This document shows, piece by piece, positions 2,225-38,326 of a stretch of DNA of 64,000 bases. Source of the DNA: Escherichia phage SP15; sequence record AP019559; one strand, 5' to 3'. Both the position numbers and the translations under genes were made by a program. Within the stretch, counting starts at the first letter, position 1, and each line of letters starts with the position of its first letter. The notes below the pieces were generated by a model. The model saw only the letters and a list, made by a program, of their open reading frames with translations, was not told the DNA's origin and did no database searches.

Positions 2225-2299
2225 TGGTGCACCCTGTTCGTATCGAACGAACCTCTCAAGCTCTTCAGGCAAGCGCTAATCCATCTCAGCTAAAGGTGC
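2225..2299 (-). tRNA. tRNA-like element, possible pseudo-tRNA (anticodon arm does not fold)
   Basis: Good 7-bp acceptor GCACCUU/AGGGUGC, T-arm GUUCG-UUCGAUA-CGAAC and CCA, D-stem GCUG/UAGC, but no 5-bp anticodon stem found. Confidence 0.35.
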
Positions 2300-2305
2300 A
2301 AATTT

Positions 2306-2382
2306 TGGCAAACCTACTAGGACTCGAACCTAGACCGTACGGTTTTGGAGACCGACATGCTGTCCAGTAACACTCTAGGAAT
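2306..2382 (-). tRNA. tRNA-Trp candidate (anticodon CCA), acceptor stem with two U-U mismatches
   Basis: Anticodon stem UCGGU/ACCGU, loop CUCCAAA, T-arm CUAGG-UUCGAGU-CCUAG, CCA; acceptor AUUCCUA/UAGGUUU imperfect. Confidence 0.5.
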
Positions 2383-2390
2383 GCAGAAAT

Positions 2391-2467
2391 TGGCGTCCTG
2401 TGCGGGGATCGAACCCGCAAATCCTACCTTGAAAGGGTAGTGACTTTACCAGTTTGTCTAACAGGAC
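2391..2467 (-). tRNA. tRNA-Glu (anticodon UUC)
   Basis: Acceptor GUCCUGU/ACAGGAC, anticodon stem CUACC/GGUAG, loop CUUUCAA, T-arm GCGGG-UUCGAUC-CCCGC, CCA. Confidence 0.7.
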
Positions 2468-2474
2468 TTAAATT

Positions 2475-2565
2475 TGGTGTTGGATGATGGAGTCGAACCA
2501 CCCGAGACCCTTCCGAGTCGGCAGATTTACAGTCTGCTTCGCTACCTCTACGATACTAATCCAAC
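2475..2565 (-). tRNA. tRNA-Tyr (anticodon GUA), type II with long variable arm
   Basis: Acceptor GUUGGAU/AUCCAAC, anticodon stem GCAGA/UCUGC, loop CUGUAAA, long variable arm, T-arm GGUGG-UUCGACU-CCAUC, CCA. Confidence 0.7.
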
Positions 2566-2695
2566 ATATTTAGAAGTATTCAAAAATTCTCATTTAAACA
2601 CTTTTAAATATGTTTTCAAATTAGGTAACTATTATACCAAGTTTTAAGGCACTGAGCAAGTCAAATTTTAAAGAACTTGCTCAGTGCTATATTAG

Positions 2696-2971
2696 TTAGT
2701 CGAACTTAGGAGTGACAGTTAAGGAGAACGGAAGTTCGAAAACTTCTTCACCCTCATTACTAACGGTAACTACACGACCTTTAAGTTCAGACATTAAAAT
2801 ATCAATATCAGCTTTTGCATCTGGAGCCATACCAGCTTCAACACATTTAGCTTTAACTTCCGGCAGAAGTTCGACATCGTAGAAATAAAGCCATTCAATC
2901 TCACCTTCCCAGCCTTCCCAGGATTTACAGATTGCACTTTCAATACCAGTTGCTACAACACGATTTTGCAT
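2696..2971 (-). CDS. hypothetical protein
   Basis: 91-aa ORF, GGAG RBS. Confidence 0.5.
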   Translation of the reverse strand: MQNRVVATGIESAICKSWEGWEGEIEWLYFYDVELLPEVKAKCVEAGMAPDAKADIDILMSELKGRVVTVSNEGEEVFELPFSLTVTPKFD

Positions 2972-3061
2972 TCGTTAACTCCTTCATCAATTTATACAAC
3001 TATTATATCAGAAATTTAAAGCAAAAGGCAAGTACATTTTTAAAAATTCTGTTTGGAGGAG

Positions 3062-3268
3062 CTAAACTCCAGATTCTTCAGCTAAGTCTAGGCTAATAAG
3101 AGTTATAGCCATAATTGCTGCACCGTGTTCTTTTTCTCCGGTGTTTTTAGCAGAGTCTATAATAGTCTTAATCTGTTCGTAATAGCCTTTTACTTCTTGT
3201 TCAATACCTGCCTCGGCTATCATGCCTTTAGTCATGATTCGTTGCATAGTAATTTCACGGTTAGCCAT
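3062..3268 (-). CDS. hypothetical protein
   Basis: 68-aa ORF, GGAGA RBS, start overlaps stop of upstream small ORF (TAATG-type coupling). Confidence 0.45.
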   Translation of the reverse strand: MANREITMQRIMTKGMIAEAGIEQEVKGYYEQIKTIIDSAKNTGEKEHGAAIMAITLISLDLAEESGV

Positions 3269-3428
3269 GATGTTTCTCCAGCTTCATTTTTAATAGTTTA
3301 CAAATGAAATCAACGTCTTCATCTGTACCTAGATCTCTATCTTCAAGAGTTGCCTTGAAGTTTTTAGTCAATTCCATGAGGATAACTTCTCTAGAACGAC
3401 GTGTTGGCGGAGGTGGATGTCTATACAT
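3261..3428 (-). CDS. small hypothetical protein (55 aa, Pro-rich N-terminus)
   Basis: Not in ORF track (below 60 aa); AAGGAA RBS 5 nt before ATG; translationally coupled to 3062..3268. Confidence 0.3.
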   Translation of the reverse strand: MYRHPPPPTRRSREVILMELTKNFKATLEDRDLGTDEDVDFICKLLKMKLEKHHG

Positions 3429-3443
3429 CTTATTTCCTTAGTT

Positions 3444-3520
3444 TGGTAGGGGTGGTGGGATTCGAACCCACAAAACCTGAATTTTAAGTCCAGTACCTAT
3501 GCCAATTCGATTACACCCCC
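3444..3520 (-). tRNA. tRNA with anticodon UAA (Leu-type anticodon but short variable loop)
   Basis: Acceptor GGGGGUG/CACCCCU, anticodon stem CUGGA/UUCAG, loop CUUAAAA, T-arm GUGGG-UUCGAAU-CCCAC, CCA; D-stem weak. Confidence 0.55.
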
Positions 3521-3527
3521 GTGTAGT

Positions 3528-3716
3528 TTAGTCAATTACTTTTGAGGCTTCAAGGTAGTCGATATAGTGTATGTTTTCTACCGTAATCATATAATCTGTC
3601 ACTTTATCCATAGCTTGGGCTTCAGAGGTAGCTCTGGCTAACCTATATCCTTTTTTATATTCATCCGGGTATTCTCTATCTTGGATAAACACAACATAAA
3701 CTATATATAGATCCAT
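3528..3716 (-). CDS. hypothetical protein
   Basis: 62-aa ORF. Confidence 0.4.
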   Translation of the reverse strand: MDLYIVYVVFIQDREYPDEYKKGYRLARATSEAQAMDKVTDYMITVENIHYIDYLEASKVID

Positions 3717-3725
3717 TTGTGACCT

Positions 3726-3803
3726 CTATTTAATTTGGTGGCTCCCCGAGGATTCGAACCTACGTACCTTCCGGTTATGAGCCGGGTGCTCATACCATAT
3801 GAG
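3726..3803 (-). tRNA. tRNA with anticodon CAU (Met/Ile type), weak T-stem
   Basis: Acceptor GGUUCUC/GGGAGCC, D-arm GCUC-AUAUGGUAU-GAGC, anticodon loop CUCAUAA, T-loop UUCGAAU but T-stem only 3 clean bp, CCA. Confidence 0.5.
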
Positions 3804-3809
3804 CTTGAG

Positions 3810-3898
3810 AACCAGAATTTGGCGGAAGAAGCGGGAATCGAACCCACAAGGCTATATTTCAAACCGACAGATTAGCAATCTGCTGCAATACCGTTATG
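3810..3898 (-). tRNA. tRNA-Ser (anticodon GCU), type II
   Basis: Acceptor GGAAGAA/UUCUUCC, anticodon stem GCAGA/UCUGU, loop UUGCUAA, long variable arm, T-loop UUCGAUU, CCA. Confidence 0.7.
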
Positions 3899-3929
3899 CT
3901 ATTCTTCCGAATTTATAAGATATATTATA

Positions 3930-4448
3930 TTAGAAATTTAGCTTCATAGCAAGAAAATTTTTCAAGTTTTCGGTAGACATCTCATCCACATCTACGGGAG
4001 AAACAAAGCCGTTTAATTTTCTAGCAAATTTTTCACCCGCAGGATCATTATCTCCGACAGCTACCAATTTAAAAGGTAGTAATTTCAGTTGCTTTAATAA
4101 CGCTTTTCCTGGAGAAGAACCCAACATTGCTAGGGCTGGATAACCAGCATTATGTAACGCAACTGCCTTAAATACAGATTCAGCAATCAATACTACTTTT
4201 TCATCTCCATTGAGAGTTTCTAGTCCCCATACACACTGGGTAGTAGAATAAGTAAAGTATTTAGCTTCAAAGGGGCACTTACCATGACCTTTTGGAGCAG
4301 AAGGATTATAAGTTTGATAGCCCCTCAACATCCCAGAGAAGTCATACAACGGGACTGTTAGCCATCCTTCCGGACTTAACCAGCAATGATATTTATCTGT
4401 ATCAAATCCTCTAGATAAGAGGTGCTGTGTTAGCTCATCAACATTCAT
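3930..4448 (-). CDS. stand-alone Toprim-domain protein (DnaG-like catalytic core)
   Basis: Motifs VVLIAESVFKAVALHNAGYPALAMLG and VAVGDNDPAGEKFARKL resemble the DnaG Toprim E...DxD core; start moved to ATG at 4448 (AGAGGA RBS), track extension reads through the promoter. Confidence 0.5.
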   Translation of the reverse strand: MNVDELTQHLLSRGFDTDKYHCWLSPEGWLTVPLYDFSGMLRGYQTYNPSAPKGHGKCPFEAKYFTYSTTQCVWGLETLNGDEKVVLIAESVFKAVALHNAGYPALAMLGSSPGKALLKQLKLLPFKLVAVGDNDPAGEKFARKLNGFVSPVDVDEMSTENLKNFLAMKLNF

Positions 4449-4623
4449 ATTTGGTTCCTCTTTCAAATTTATAGATATATTATACAGAGAATTTAGCATT
4501 CAAGCAATCAAATTTTTTAACTTTTTAGAGGAAAATCATAGGGCACTTAAGGATAGCAGATAAGTGGTGAGGACCAAAATTTGTGACCCCACTAAAAATT
4601 CAGGGGCAATTTTTAAAGACCCC

Positions 4624-4653: not shown

Positions 4654-4713
4654 TATGTTATGGATGAGTGATCAAAGAGACACACATTTTCTATATACTA
4701 GGAGGTGTCAAAA

Positions 4714-5697
4714 ATGACAGAAGAAGTAGCTAAGAGTCCTGAGACCGTCGCTAGCGTTGCAGCAGAACTGCACCGTCACGAGGAATCAGATAAGAAAAAG
4801 TGGGAGAAGGTCAGAGCCTACGAAGAAAAACATCGTGAACACGATGATGAAGAAGATGACGATGAACATTGTCATAAATATGGAAAACATAAAATGCAAG
4901 AACCAGTAAACGTATTTACTAGTGGCTTCCCTGGCCTACTGGGTGGTTACCCAGCAAACGCAGGTGCTTTCGGTGGTGAAGGTATGGGACTATTCGGAGC
5001 TATCCTAATCGGTGCTCTATTAACAGGCGGATTCGGTGGTTTCGGTGGATTCGGTGGACGTGGTGTAGTTGGTGATGGTACCGCAGTTGATGCAGTACTT
5101 CAGAACCAAGATACCGCTAGTATTCTAGCAGCTATTAACACTACTCGTACAGAAGCTAACCAGGGTACTGGAGCTGTTTTAAGCGCAGTTAACAATGGGT
5201 TTAGCCAGACATCCCAAAACCAGAGCCGTGATACTCAGTCTGTACTAACTACGATCTATGGTACAGGTGCTAATCTGTCTAATCAGATCTGTCAGGAAAC
5301 TCGCAACGTTATTCAGGGTCAGTTCGATCTTTCTCGCCAGATTGATCAATCTTTCGCAGCTAATCAGATAGCTCGTGCACAAGATAAGTTTGATTCTGCA
5401 CAGATCGCTTTCCAGCAGACTTTACAAACTAATAACCAGTTTGCCGCTGTTCAGGCTCAGATGTGTGCTAACCAGAACTCTCTGGAACGTCAGATCGCTG
5501 AATGTTGCTGTGAACTTCAGACTGCTATCGCTGGTGTAACTACTGCTCGTATTCAGGATGAGTTAGATGCATGTCGCCTACGTGAAGCAATCGCTGCGGG
5601 TAACGGTGCTAACGGTCAGGTAATTAATCAAATCGCTGTAAGTCTTGGTGCTATCACTCAGACTCTGGCTGGTCTGCAGGCTAAACTGCCGGCTTAA
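4714..5697 (+). CDS. low-complexity membrane protein: His/acidic N-terminus, Gly-zipper TM segment, Q/N/S/T-rich C-terminal domain with CCC motif
   Basis: AGGAGG RBS 9 nt before ATG 4714; TM GLFGAILIGALLTGGFGGFGGFGG; codon usage rich in CGT/GGT/GCT/CTG. Confidence 0.6.
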   Translation: MTEEVAKSPETVASVAAELHRHEESDKKKWEKVRAYEEKHREHDDEEDDDEHCHKYGKHKMQEPVNVFTSGFPGLLGGYPANAGAFGGEGMGLFGAILIGALLTGGFGGFGGFGGRGVVGDGTAVDAVLQNQDTASILAAINTTRTEANQGTGAVLSAVNNGFSQTSQNQSRDTQSVLTTIYGTGANLSNQICQETRNVIQGQFDLSRQIDQSFAANQIARAQDKFDSAQIAFQQTLQTNNQFAAVQAQMCANQNSLERQIAECCCELQTAIAGVTTARIQDELDACRLREAIAAGNGANGQVINQIAVSLGAITQTLAGLQAKLPA

Positions 5698-5718: not shown

Positions 5719-6135
5719 ATGAGTAAATATGGTTTTGTAAATAACGGACTTAATCAAAGTATGGGCTCCCAGCAGCCCATTCCGGGTCTGGATAACCCCT
5801 ACTTACAACAATTGCAACAGCGTTTAGCAGAAGCGCAACAGATGCAACAACAACTCCAGCAAAACCCTGGAAGTGTGAGTCCTATGCAAATGATGCAGCA
5901 AATGAGCGGGCAGTCGCAAATGCCTCAACAAATGCAGCAACAGATGCCGCAGCAGCAAGTTCAGCAGCAAACCCAACAACCGCAGGTTTCTGCGGAAGGA
6001 CAGGCAGTACTAGCCCTTTTCGAAGACTTCACAAAGACAGAGGATGGGAAGCAGCTTGTATCACTTATGGGTAAGTTTAATAGCTTCTGCCAAAGCCAAG
6101 TTGCAAAAGCTCAAAATGGTGGTAATAACTCCTAA
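5719..6135 (+). CDS. Q-rich protein
   Basis: 138-aa ORF, RBS AGGGGAGGAG, about 30 percent Gln in central region. Confidence 0.55.
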   Translation: MSKYGFVNNGLNQSMGSQQPIPGLDNPYLQQLQQRLAEAQQMQQQLQQNPGSVSPMQMMQQMSGQSQMPQQMQQQMPQQQVQQQTQQPQVSAEGQAVLALFEDFTKTEDGKQLVSLMGKFNSFCQSQVAKAQNGGNNS

Positions 6136-35372: not shown

Positions 35373-35403
35373 AGGGGAGGGGGCTATGCTCCTTCCCCTT
35401 TTT
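35373..35403 (+). terminator. rho-independent terminator after the HTH-repeat protein gene
   Basis: 8-bp stem GGGGAGGG/CCTTCCCC then TTTTT. Confidence 0.6.
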
Positions 35404-35436
35404 GCATTTAGAAGGCACGAAAGCGTGCAAAGGAGA

Positions 35437-36909
35437 ATGACCTTGTTTAACGTGCAAGCTGTAGTGTTGAAGATGCTTCTAGCTTCCGAACAGAAGCAAA
35501 TAGCATTGGAAACATTCTCAAAACTGCATAAAGATCATTTTAATGACGCTTTCTCCTCAATTTACCAAGCCGTCCAGAATTATTATAAAAAATATAACAC
35601 AATGCCGTCCATTGACGCACTGATGCTTGAGGCTAATAGGAACGCCCGCCTTTCTCAAGCTCTAGTCGTTTTAGCTAACACTCAAATTCCAGAAGTTAGC
35701 ATGGAACAGGCACTTGAAGTCCTAGAAGCCGAGTATACACAGGATTTATTCCTGAAGCTTCTAGAAACAGACGTGCTTCAAGATTTAACAATGCTGGATC
35801 AGGGAGAAATTCTTAACCGAGTTGCCTCCCTTCACTTAAAATTAGAAGAGAAAGTAACGAATACTGGAAAAGTATTCAACGCAGATAACATGCGTATTTT
35901 CCAGAGAGAAGAAGATACCAAACTGAACTTAATCGCTCTTGGTATCTGTAATGAGTTCGACGCTCAAATTGGTTTAGCTCGCACAGAAACGTTACTGCTT
36001 GGTGGTTGGCGTGGTACTGGTAAATCCATTATCTGTTCAAACATACAGGTTCAGCAATATTTGAATGGGGATATTGCTCCATACTTCTCAATTGAGATGA
36101 AAGAACATGAAGTATTTAGACGTAATCTAGCCATGTTAGCTGGTGTATCCGCACTAGCAATGCGTAATAATACTCTAGAAGGCGCAGCTCTGTTGAGATT
36201 AGCCAGAACTAGAGCTAGGATGTTTAATGGTGGTGAAGAGCTTTTCGATAACTTCGTTAAACAGTACACAATGGCTAAGATGAGTGATTTCTACGATATG
36301 GAAAGTAAGCTAATAGAAGGGTATGAACTACATACTCCTATGATTATTGTTTATGATCCTGAGCTGTCTATTACAACAGTTGACGTAGAATTAAATAAAT
36401 TAGTTGCTAGATATGGGGATAAAGTTACAGTAGCTTTACTGGACTATATTAACCAAACCCGACTTCCAGATTCTAAAACCATTGATATGTATGACTGGAA
36501 AGAACAGATGGTTGTTAGCTCGTCTTTCAAATCTATCTGCCAGAAACATAACGTGGCTGGCGTAGCTCCTTACCAGATCGATCAAGATGGTAGAACACGT
36601 ATGTCAAAAGGGATTCTTGATTCCGCAGACATGGCTGCTAATCTTAATGCTGCAAAAGCTGATAATGGTCAAGGTGCTATTATGTTTGACTTCGTTAAGA
36701 CTCGTTCTTCTGATAGCGTGAAGTTTATGCCTAAAATGAACTGGGAAACCCTGCGGATGGATAATACTACCAACCTAGCAATGGAAGATATATCTCAAAT
36801 GGAAGCTGAGTTCGTTATCCCTATTGAGAAGGATAAGCCGGCTCAATCTAAACGTGCTAAGAAAGACAAAGCTGAAAATTCAACAGGTGAACAGGCCAGC
36901 GATATATGA
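35437..36909 (+). CDS. DnaB-like replicative helicase
   Basis: RecA-fold Walker A GGWRGTGKS and Walker B-like block; start uncertain (ATG 35437 or TTG 35443) because the track start lies in the upstream terminator hairpin. Confidence 0.65.
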   Translation: MTLFNVQAVVLKMLLASEQKQIALETFSKLHKDHFNDAFSSIYQAVQNYYKKYNTMPSIDALMLEANRNARLSQALVVLANTQIPEVSMEQALEVLEAEYTQDLFLKLLETDVLQDLTMLDQGEILNRVASLHLKLEEKVTNTGKVFNADNMRIFQREEDTKLNLIALGICNEFDAQIGLARTETLLLGGWRGTGKSIICSNIQVQQYLNGDIAPYFSIEMKEHEVFRRNLAMLAGVSALAMRNNTLEGAALLRLARTRARMFNGGEELFDNFVKQYTMAKMSDFYDMESKLIEGYELHTPMIIVYDPELSITTVDVELNKLVARYGDKVTVALLDYINQTRLPDSKTIDMYDWKEQMVVSSSFKSICQKHNVAGVAPYQIDQDGRTRMSKGILDSADMAANLNAAKADNGQGAIMFDFVKTRSSDSVKFMPKMNWETLRMDNTTNLAMEDISQMEAEFVIPIEKDKPAQSKRAKKDKAENSTGEQASDI

Positions 36910-37439
36910 TAACACAGGAAAGGCTAAAAGAGTTATTTGATTACTCCCCAGAAACTGGGGAGTTTACTAGAAAAGTATCTAGAGGTAATCAGAAAGCTGG
37001 TAGTATAATAACCAGAAAAGACTCTAACGGTTATATAATTATTGGTATAGATGGCAAGGGTTACAAAGCCCATCGGATGGCTTTTCTATTTATGGAAAAT
37101 ACATTGCCGGAAAAAGTAGACCATGTAAACAGAATACCTTTTGATAATAGGTGGTGTAATCTAAGAGACGCCACAGCTCAGGAAAATAGTAGAAATAAAA
37201 CCGCATGTAGTAAGTCTGGATATTTGGGAGTTGCTTGGGATATCGAAAAACAAAGATGGAGAGTTCAAGTAAGAGACTCTAATAGCACTCTTAAAAATGG
37301 TGGCAGATTTAAGTATGAAGAGCTAGAGCTAGCTGTAAATTCAGCAAATATATTAAGGACTAAGTTACATGGAGAACGTGCTGTTATAGAAATTTTTGAT
37401 ACATCCAATTATCCTTCACTGGAGGAGTTAAATTCATGA
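36906..37439 (+). CDS. HNH homing endonuclease (HNH_3 plus AP2-like domain)
   Basis: YKAHRMAFLFMENTLPEKVDHVNRIPFDNRWCNLR; paralogous to 26062..26514. Confidence 0.65.
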   Translation: MITQERLKELFDYSPETGEFTRKVSRGNQKAGSIITRKDSNGYIIIGIDGKGYKAHRMAFLFMENTLPEKVDHVNRIPFDNRWCNLRDATAQENSRNKTACSKSGYLGVAWDIEKQRWRVQVRDSNSTLKNGGRFKYEELELAVNSANILRTKLHGERAVIEIFDTSNYPSLEELNS

Positions 37440-38326
37440 GTCGAATAACAGAATTACTTGATCTTAAGGGAATTGAGTATAAAGATACTGGTGGAGATAT
37501 TTTAATCTGTTGTCTCAATCCAGATCATGACGATAAACACCCAAGTTTGCGTATTGACCCTGAAACAGGTATTATGCACTGCTTGAGTTGTGGCTTCGGT
37601 AAAGGTATACCGAGCATTTACCATTATTTTAATGAGACTCAGTACCGACAGTCCCCAAGGCTATCACAAGTACGTAAAAAGATTTCAGAGATTAGGAATG
37701 GATCAACGAATCTTGCAATTCCTGAATCTGCTTACCTTTTTGAAGGTGATTTCCGAGGTATAAGTTCTAAGACCTTGAAGAAATATTTTGCTTTCCAACA
37801 CCAAGCAGACTGGGAAGGCAGAATCGTATTCCCAATCACAGATGCTGTTGGACGCAATATCCTATTTTTGGGTCGTTCTATAAACAGTTCTGCCCCTCCT
37901 AAATACTTAGTAAAACCAAAACAAGTTTCACCGCCAATTTTTCCTGTACGATATAATACTCCAGTTCTTATTCTAGTTGAAGGCATCTTTGATATGCTGA
38001 ACCTAGAGGATAATGGTATAGACTACGCTTCTTGCTGCTTTGGTACACATCAGTTTACTTCGGATAACATTGCAGATAAGTTCAGTCCTTATATTATTGC
38101 CGGTGTAAAAGTTGTTGTTATCTTACTAGATAATGATGCTTCTGGTAATAAAGCTGCACAAGCATTGGCCAAGCTAATTCGTACAAAAACGCGTTTAACA
38201 CCTGTAGTTGCTAACTTTCTTCTGCCTGAAGGTAAAGACCCGGGTGACTTAAATAAAGAAGAGATTGATATGTTAGCAAAACGTATTGAAATTTTAGTTG
38301 CTGAATCGCTTAAAGATTTGGTATAA
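37436..38326 (+). CDS. DNA primase (Zn-ribbon plus Toprim)
   Basis: CCLNPDHDDKHPSL...CLSCGFGKG Zn-binding; Toprim LILVEGIFDML...LLDNDASGNKAA. Confidence 0.8.
   Translation: MSRITELLDLKGIEYKDTGGDILICCLNPDHDDKHPSLRIDPETGIMHCLSCGFGKGIPSIYHYFNETQYRQSPRLSQVRKKISEIRNGSTNLAIPESAYLFEGDFRGISSKTLKKYFAFQHQADWEGRIVFPITDAVGRNILFLGRSINSSAPPKYLVKPKQVSPPIFPVRYNTPVLILVEGIFDMLNLEDNGIDYASCCFGTHQFTSDNIADKFSPYIIAGVKVVVILLDNDASGNKAAQALAKLIRTKTRLTPVVANFLLPEGKDPGDLNKEEIDMLAKRIEILVAESLKDLV

Follow-up and report, generated by a model that had tools for sequence, protein, structure and literature searches.

Genes and features at the rad locus

The window analysed in this study, a stretch of 64,000 nucleotides (record AP019559), comes from a T5-like phage (Tequintavirus), and over its first 20 kb it shares 97% identity with Escherichia phage FFH1 and other Tequintavirus genomes. 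The gene under study, rad, the orthologue of T5 ORF071 and SP15 ORF75, occupies 3930..4448 on the minus strand. Reading of the open reading frame and its translation gave a coding sequence of 172 aa, which starts with an ATG at 4446-4448 and includes a TAA stop at 3930-3932, and a ribosome-binding site, AGAGGA (4456..4461, minus strand), could be read from the sequence 7 nt upstream of this ATG. A longer, mechanically derived form of the same ORF begins with an ATG at 4497-4499 and would encode 189 aa, the length stated in the preprint that described Rad (10.1101/2023.03.15.532788). But this ATG is not preceded by a Shine-Dalgarno sequence and is placed between two hexamers, TTGCTT (-35) and TATAAT (-10), and both the homologues of rad and the GenBank annotations start with the methionine of the 172-aa form. 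Furthermore, the five mutant residues numbered in the preprint fit the 172-aa form and not the 189 aa stated there. Since the ribosome-binding site, the starts of the homologues and the preprint's own residue numbering all favour the shorter form, the published 189-aa start is probably wrong and the start at 4448 is better supported.

The two hexamers upstream of rad, TTGCTT-17 nt-TATAAT (4479..4507, minus strand), may constitute an early promoter with the ATG of the 189-aa form inside its spacer; we regard it as putative because the consensus scan made no call there, the -35 hexamer matching at only 3 of 6 positions. The scan did report a promoter-like sequence, TTGCTA-17 nt-TATAAT, at 3924..3952 on the minus strand (10 of 12 matches), which overlaps the 3' end of rad and is directed into the tRNA genes downstream; a promoter is annotated under this match in the GenBank records of Salmonella phage 5 and BF23.

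The rad gene sits between a divergent ORF at 4705 and an array of tRNA genes, with Ser, Met, Leu and Tyr tRNAs among them, on its own strand. The array (2225..3908, minus strand) was delineated from ARAGORN, Rfam, the FFH1 and T5 annotations and published papers, and corresponds to the published tRNA-rich region, or anti-defence island, of T5-like phages. The tRNA-Ser gene (3820-3908, minus strand) lies directly downstream of rad and is followed by a tRNA-Met (CAT) gene (3739-3813, minus strand), which was missed by ARAGORN but scored 40.3 bits with Rfam and is annotated in FFH1. The array also carries Leu, Glu, Trp and Phe tRNAs with small ORFs interspersed, and a tRNA-Tyr (GTA) gene (2475-2565, minus strand). 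The latter corresponds to the tRNA-Tyr with which T5 and SP15 reportedly cancel retron Eco7, a retron that depletes host tRNA-Tyr by means of its PtuAB effector. Two of the small ORFs overlap one another a short way downstream of rad, at 3062-3268 (68 aa) and 3261-3428 (55 aa) on the minus strand, and correspond to ORF71 and ORF72 of FFH1. It may be noted that the preprint credited the rescue from retron Ec83 to an adjacent pair of small ORFs on a neighbouring fragment, named ORF71/72 in its text and ORF72/73 in a legend (10.1101/2023.03.15.532788). On the other side of rad, two low-complexity proteins rich in Gly, Gln and Ala are encoded divergently on the plus strand, at 4705-5697 (330 aa) and 5719-6135 (138 aa), and neither has a Pfam match. 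In the T5 record the first of these is split into ORF072 and ORF073, and the second is labelled 'cAMP-dependent protein kinase catalytic subunit', a label which looks spurious.

The product of rad has 100% identical counterparts in dozens of T5-like phages. It shows 97.1% identity over 172/172 aa to T5 AAX12008.1, which is annotated as 'DNA primase' and lies between ORF070 and ORF072, and all five residues that were mutated in the Rad preprint (R13, P33, I88, D135 and E156) occur here at the same positions. Based on the alignment with T5 ORF071 and these five residues, we are highly confident that the ORF at 3930-4448 encodes Rad ('retron anti-defense'), with its anti-retron role. It is the same protein as Rad of T5 and SP15 (97-100% identical) in the same place upstream of tRNA-Ser, and the only difference is the length stated by the preprint, 189 aa as against 172 aa (10.1101/2023.03.15.532788; PMC11555353). 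Thus the gene is already known and named. The region that contains rad is deleted in the viable phages T5n and SP15m, and the sequenced BF23 also lacks rad, its genome paper of 2023 describing a deletion of ~4 kb which takes out ORF071-075 (PMC10644984). A partial BF23 record of 14.5 kb (NC_042564.1) does carry rad, at 97.7% identity; apparently, the laboratory lineages of BF23 differ at this locus.

Rad as a primase-type catalytic core

The original prediction, made from the sequence, was of a stand-alone Toprim-domain protein with a DnaG-like E...DxD core and no zinc-binding or helicase-interaction domain, encoded in addition to a complete primase elsewhere. The Toprim core was borne out by several searches. 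Residues 83-172 (3933..4202, minus strand) match Pfam Toprim_2, Toprim and Toprim_4, the Toprim_2 match scoring 25.2 bits against a gathering cut-off of 22.1, and checking of the codons placed motif IV at E90 (4179-4181), motif V at D133-N-D135 (4044-4052) and motif VI at D153-V-D155-E156 (3981-3992). Rad also matched PHROG 849, 'DNA primase', with an E value of 2.5e-62, the match spanning positions 146-337 of the 435 positions of that family. The prediction of a Toprim protein was nevertheless understated, as Rad, although indeed free-standing, is of primase type and more than a bare Toprim module: residues 1-82 (4203..4448, minus strand), with a helix at 3-12 and a beta sheet, form the primase N-terminal subdomain, which carries motif II, TVPLYDFSGMLRGYQ, and motif III, K63-Y64 (codons 4257-4262).

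The comparison with the phage's own primase supports this assignment. The gene at 37436..38326 on the plus strand encodes a DnaG-type primase with matches to Pfam, PHROG 47 and TIGR01391; its Zn_ribbon_DnaG, DNAG_N and Toprim domains in Pfam agree with the complete primase that had been predicted there, and it serves here as a comparator and is not part of rad. When the profile of the Rad family was aligned with that of this primase (hhalign), the two matched with 95.9% probability and an E value of 6e-9, residues 27-172 of Rad aligning with residues 127-284 of the primase and motifs II-VI in register: TVPLYDFSG with VFPITDAVG in motif II, KY with KY in motif III, AESVF with VEGIF in motif IV and GDNDPAG with LDNDASG in motif V. 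The primase gene is flanked by DNA polymerase A and by a DnaB-like helicase (35386-36909), with an HNH gene intervening on the helicase side, and this replication module, which further includes an SF2 helicase, is ~33 kb away from rad. The intervening HNH endonuclease gene (HNH_3; 36906-37439, plus strand) overlaps its neighbours by stop and start codons and is probably a homing endonuclease inserted into the module.

Structure comparison led to the same conclusion. A search of PDB sequences with the single Rad sequence returned chance matches only (xylanases, E > 0.2), but the family profile reached DnaG structures from sequence alone (E 1e-6), and nearly the whole AF2 model of Rad (pLDDT 89) superimposed on the RNA-polymerase domain of primases. 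The Toprim fold was thus found both by profile and by structure, and the nearest structures were DnaG catalytic cores, those of Aquifex, B. subtilis, E. coli and M. tuberculosis giving scores of 13.3-11.5 over 156-161 of the 172 residues. Twinkle (12.6 over 157 residues), the T7 gp4 primase fragment (12.2 over 145) and T4 gp61 (9.2 over 145) matched as well, and RNase M5 and small Toprim proteins scored about 7 over 83-90 residues. Rad hence resembles the polymerising primases in fold much more than it does any of the known Toprim nucleases, and it is not of the RNase M5 type, in which Toprim is the whole catalytic unit and RNase M5 or a small Toprim protein would be the nearest structure.

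Rad shares with the DnaG-type primases (E. coli, Aquifex and Bacillus DnaG, T7 gp4, T4 gp61 and Twinkle) the RNA-polymerase domain with motifs II-VI, but differs from them in lacking the zinc-binding domain (motif I), the C-terminal helical or helicase-binding domain and any link to a replicative helicase, and in being dispensable for growth. In primases the zinc-binding domain serves template recognition. No Zn_ribbon_DnaG match was obtained for Rad with Pfam, and its only cysteines, C22, C58 and C72, do not form a CHC2 pattern; the protein ends ~15 residues past motif VI, right after Toprim, with no C-terminal helicase-binding domain. The predicted absence of both domains therefore stands, and Rad is, as judged from sequence and model, a minimal primase RNA-polymerase domain without a zinc-binding domain and a helicase-binding tail. 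We also considered whether rad is one piece of a primase gene that has been split or interrupted, and ruled this out, as stand-alone proteins of 165-190 aa are the norm in the family and rad has its own ribosome-binding site and stop codon.

With the Toprim nucleases (RNase M5, the Toprim protein of retron Eco2, AriB of PARIS and the OLD family) Rad has the Toprim acidic metal site in common, and, as Rad probably does, they act on structured RNAs, or in tRNA or msDNA biology, in phage-host conflict. A PADLOC scan gave no AriB (DUF4435) or OLD match to Rad, and its sole match was to the DRT 'RTasDnaG-like' model (E 5e-7, residues 84-145). The truncated DnaG paralogue MG010 of mycoplasmas (TIGR00646) resembles Rad in being short, zinc-finger-less and encoded beside a full primase, but MG010 is cellular and of unknown function and Rad is phage-encoded. 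Rad matched TIGR00646 weakly, over residues 22-148, with 20.4 bits against a cut-off of 260.65, and thus is not a member.

The Rad family and its genomic surroundings

An exhaustive profile search recovered 855 cluster representatives of the Rad family at E <= 1e-3 and 353 at E <= 1e-10, which are mostly stand-alone proteins of 165-190 aa. Among 88 representatives that were compared, G43, Y64 and G75 were invariant, and L10, R13, Y47, E90, F93, D135, G138 and D153 were conserved in at least 90%; at the metal site E90 was kept in 87, D135 in 86 and D153 in 80 of the 88. Because the conserved positions fall in both the primase N-terminal subdomain and the metal site, both appear to be under selection, and the best conserved positions of the family include those of the primase-specific motifs II and III. 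Four residues after the motif IV Glu, Asp was found in 45 and Lys or Arg in 36 of the 88 representatives; this position, equivalent to D269 of the DnaG-type primases, is Lys94 in the T5 subgroup, including Rad.

Priunavirus PR1, Salmonella phage Arash and 16 of 41 non-T5 IMG/VR loci have their homologue of rad within a tRNA array on the same strand, and in several unrelated IMG/VR phages a tRNA-Tyr gene often lies immediately 3' of the Rad-like gene. The homologue adjoins an RtcB ligase gene in the Erwinia (Agricanvirus) jumbo phages, overlaps with the gene of a tRNA nucleotidyltransferase in Vibrio phage F102, comes after an SSB gene in Pseudomonas phage pf16 and, in Kagunavirus, comes after an SNF2-type helicase gene, the start and stop codons of the two genes overlapping. 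Of the Pfam families found in 146 neighbouring ORFs, NAMPT (5), Dam-type methyltransferases (4) and DNA polymerase A (3) were the most frequent, and RtcB and NUDIX were each seen once. The longer family members are fusions, some of them with other counter-defence enzymes; the partners are CCA-adding-enzyme domains in both orders (P0072, P0098), Arr-like ADP-ribosyltransferase, GNAT and Mom domains, an NMNAT-like cytidylyltransferase fold, HAD, ParB_N and a DUF3268 zinc finger. On its phage-like contig the ORF of the P0072 fusion is uninterrupted, but it forms a singleton cluster, and a search with it was dominated by ordinary CCA-adding enzymes. Phages with a Rad homologue also encode a separate primase, for example Gp34 of Kagunavirus; that the Rad-like protein is the real primase of Kagunavirus could be ruled out, given its SNF2-type neighbour and the separate helicase-primase of 752 aa in the same phage. 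Taken together, the surroundings of the family have an accessory or counter-defence flavour in which the tRNA theme is recurrent.

Two further observations were made at these loci. A NAMPT gene (456-477 aa) lies ~1-2.5 kb upstream of the Rad-like gene in the IMG/VR loci L049, L051, L052, L058 and L066, all of which except L058 also have tRNA arrays. NAMPT takes part in the NAD+ reconstitution with which phages counter NAD-depleting defences, and if this role holds here, NAMPT would be another counter-defence neighbour of Rad-like genes. In jumbo phages the Rad homologue is spread over two frames (L004:2902-3511, L084:5990-6520 and L074:5990-6530; Erwinia and Dickeya). The part encoding the N-terminal subdomain ends in '...RI(L/F)N*' and the Toprim part ('TVFLTESVFKACALH...') follows in the +1 frame with an overlap of ~20 codons; the annotated start of the second CDS comes after the motif IV Glu, though that stretch is conserved in the protein. 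Among the tblastn matches listed, Rad was in two pieces in all jumbo phages of Erwinia, Dickeya and Klebsiella. Either the +1 frameshift is programmed, or the enzyme consists of two chains that are divided at the subdomain boundary.

Published function and possible modes of action

The activity of Rad was mapped within a region of ~8 kb that is deleted in T5n and SP15m, and the responsible gene, SP15 ORF75, was named rad and presented as the first phage mechanism for retron evasion (10.1101/2023.03.15.532788). When Rad has been deleted from T5 and SP15, a near-identical protein restores their plating on cells with Eco2 (Ec67) and Eco7 (Ec78). The preprint reported complementation by fragment and by ORF for Ec67, Ec78 and Ec83, and rescue from Ec83, Ec48 and Se72 is described in the preprint only. 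On co-expression of Rad the levels of msDNA and of msr/msd RNA were lower, with the RT and effector transcripts unchanged, and each of the substitutions R13E, P33T, I88T, D135H and E156H caused a partial loss of function (10.1101/2023.03.15.532788). The peer-reviewed version kept ORF75 as the determinant against Eco2 and Eco7, but dropped the ncRNA-degradation mechanism, and the mechanism of ORF75 could not be determined there (PMC11555353). A later paper used SP15m as a strain 'lacking the anti-defense protein Rad', other later retron papers mention Rad only in passing, and none of several retron papers of 2025-2026 that were consulted gives a mechanism for Rad.

Considering these reports together with our analysis, we regard Rad as an early, non-essential counter-defence protein of T5-like phages and judge it likely that its primase core acts catalytically on retron nucleic acid. 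Catalysis through the Toprim metal site, which might be hydrolysis or nucleotidyl transfer, is suggested by the conservation of its acidic residues and by the weakening of Rad in the mutants D135H and E156H; the conserved residues of the N-terminal subdomain, together with the weakening by R13E and P33T, point to a primase-type nucleic-acid cleft. The single-strand-binding cleft between the two subdomains and the acidic Mg2+ site would be used together on some structured nucleic acid in the retron pathway. The msr-msd ncRNA or the msDNA is the most likely target, and if Rad cuts it or renders it unusable in another way, no functional sensor-effector complex of the retron would be maintained. 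That the decisive step is nucleolytic destruction of the ncRNA or msDNA we hold only tentatively, at somewhat less than an even chance. The nuclease alternative of the original prediction does agree with the sole published mechanistic proposal, which rests on qPCR and gels (10.1101/2023.03.15.532788). But the proposal was dropped from the peer-reviewed paper, the preprint describes no in-vitro nuclease assay, the fold of Rad is polymerase-like, and a plain nuclease would have no need for motifs II and III. It also conflicts with what is known of the retrons concerned. In Eco7 the RT-msDNA is the antitoxin and msDNA cleavage frees the PtuAB toxin, and in Eco2 msDNA decay uncages a Toprim RNase; because msDNA loss activates both, a lowered msDNA level is expected to trigger them and not to silence them.

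This paradox does not arise if Rad works on the tRNA side, where it would heal, re-extend or shield tRNAs damaged by tRNA-cutting effectors, for example by templated refilling of a 3'-truncated acceptor stem ahead of CCA addition, so that the outcome of Eco2 or Eco7 would be cancelled and the retron itself not disarmed. Both retrons validated for ORF75 in the reviewed paper kill by tRNA cutting (PMC11555353), the PtuAB of Eco7 depleting tRNA-Tyr and Eco2 placing its nicks in acceptor stems, 6-7 nt ahead of the CCA end. The polymerase-type motifs II-VI kept in Rad, the position of Rad-like genes inside tRNA arrays of several unrelated lineages, often directly ahead of tRNA-Tyr, the RtcB tRNA ligase and tRNA nucleotidyltransferase neighbours and the fusions with CCA-adding-enzyme domains all point in this direction. 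We nevertheless consider it unlikely. The drop reported in the preprint was specific to msr/msd RNA and msDNA, and Rad was found there to protect against Ec83 with its OLD nuclease, Ec48 and Se72, whose effectors are not known to target tRNA (10.1101/2023.03.15.532788). Phage tRNA regions are general hot spots of accessory genes and the co-location may be mechanistically meaningless; the CCA-enzyme fusions are rare, one of them being the singleton P0072, and the PolyA_pol family was not among the commonest neighbours at 23 sampled loci. Furthermore, DnaG-type primases copy DNA and not RNA templates.

A non-catalytic role was also weighed, in which Rad is a binder or decoy whose cleft holds the msDNA, the ncRNA or the RT priming site and thereby either blocks reverse transcription or shields the msDNA from the phage nucleases that trigger the retron. 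The RNA-polymerase domains of DnaG and T7 gp4 still bind single-stranded nucleic acid when they lack the zinc-binding domain, and shielding of msDNA would explain why retrons with msDNA cleavage as their trigger are inhibited. That D135H and E156H singly reduce the activity only in part is in line with a binder, but the fall of msDNA on Rad co-expression, where it should rather be stabilised, is not (10.1101/2023.03.15.532788). The retention of E90, D135 and D153 in at least 90% of 88 divergent members favours catalysis, and a pure binder is decidedly improbable. The other half of the original prediction, an accessory replication factor, fared worse. A second, auxiliary replication primase or primase subunit would accord with the whole catalytic core with motifs II-VI, with the 'DNA primase' annotation of the family by GenBank and PHROG and with the helicase gene that precedes the Kagunavirus homologue. 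However, Rad has neither a zinc-binding nor a helicase-binding domain, its gene lies far from the replication module in a deletable, tRNA-rich accessory region, the Kagunavirus neighbour is SNF2-type and not a replicative helicase in a phage that has its own helicase-primase, and the known phenotype is rescue from retrons. Since the natural deletions of rad in T5n, SP15m and BF23 are viable, this role is nearly excluded.

Rad keeps the complete primase active site, unlike a typical Toprim nuclease, and destruction of the ncRNA, the only mechanism proposed so far, fits awkwardly with the newer structures in which msDNA loss activates the retron. Ties to tRNA genes and to tRNA repair or CCA-adding enzymes run through the whole family. 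As a long shot, Rad and its relatives of ~170 aa may be active zinc-finger-less primase-type nucleotidyltransferases for RNA work, and not nucleases, which could for instance refill acceptor stems before CCA addition or RtcB ligation, or polymerise on the msDNA or ncRNA and so disable the retron. Rad reportedly blocks several retron types and is therefore of interest for the design of phage therapies and for genome editing with retrons. If the nucleotidyltransferase reading is true, the primase core would be a new kind of RNA-repair or counter-defence polymerase.
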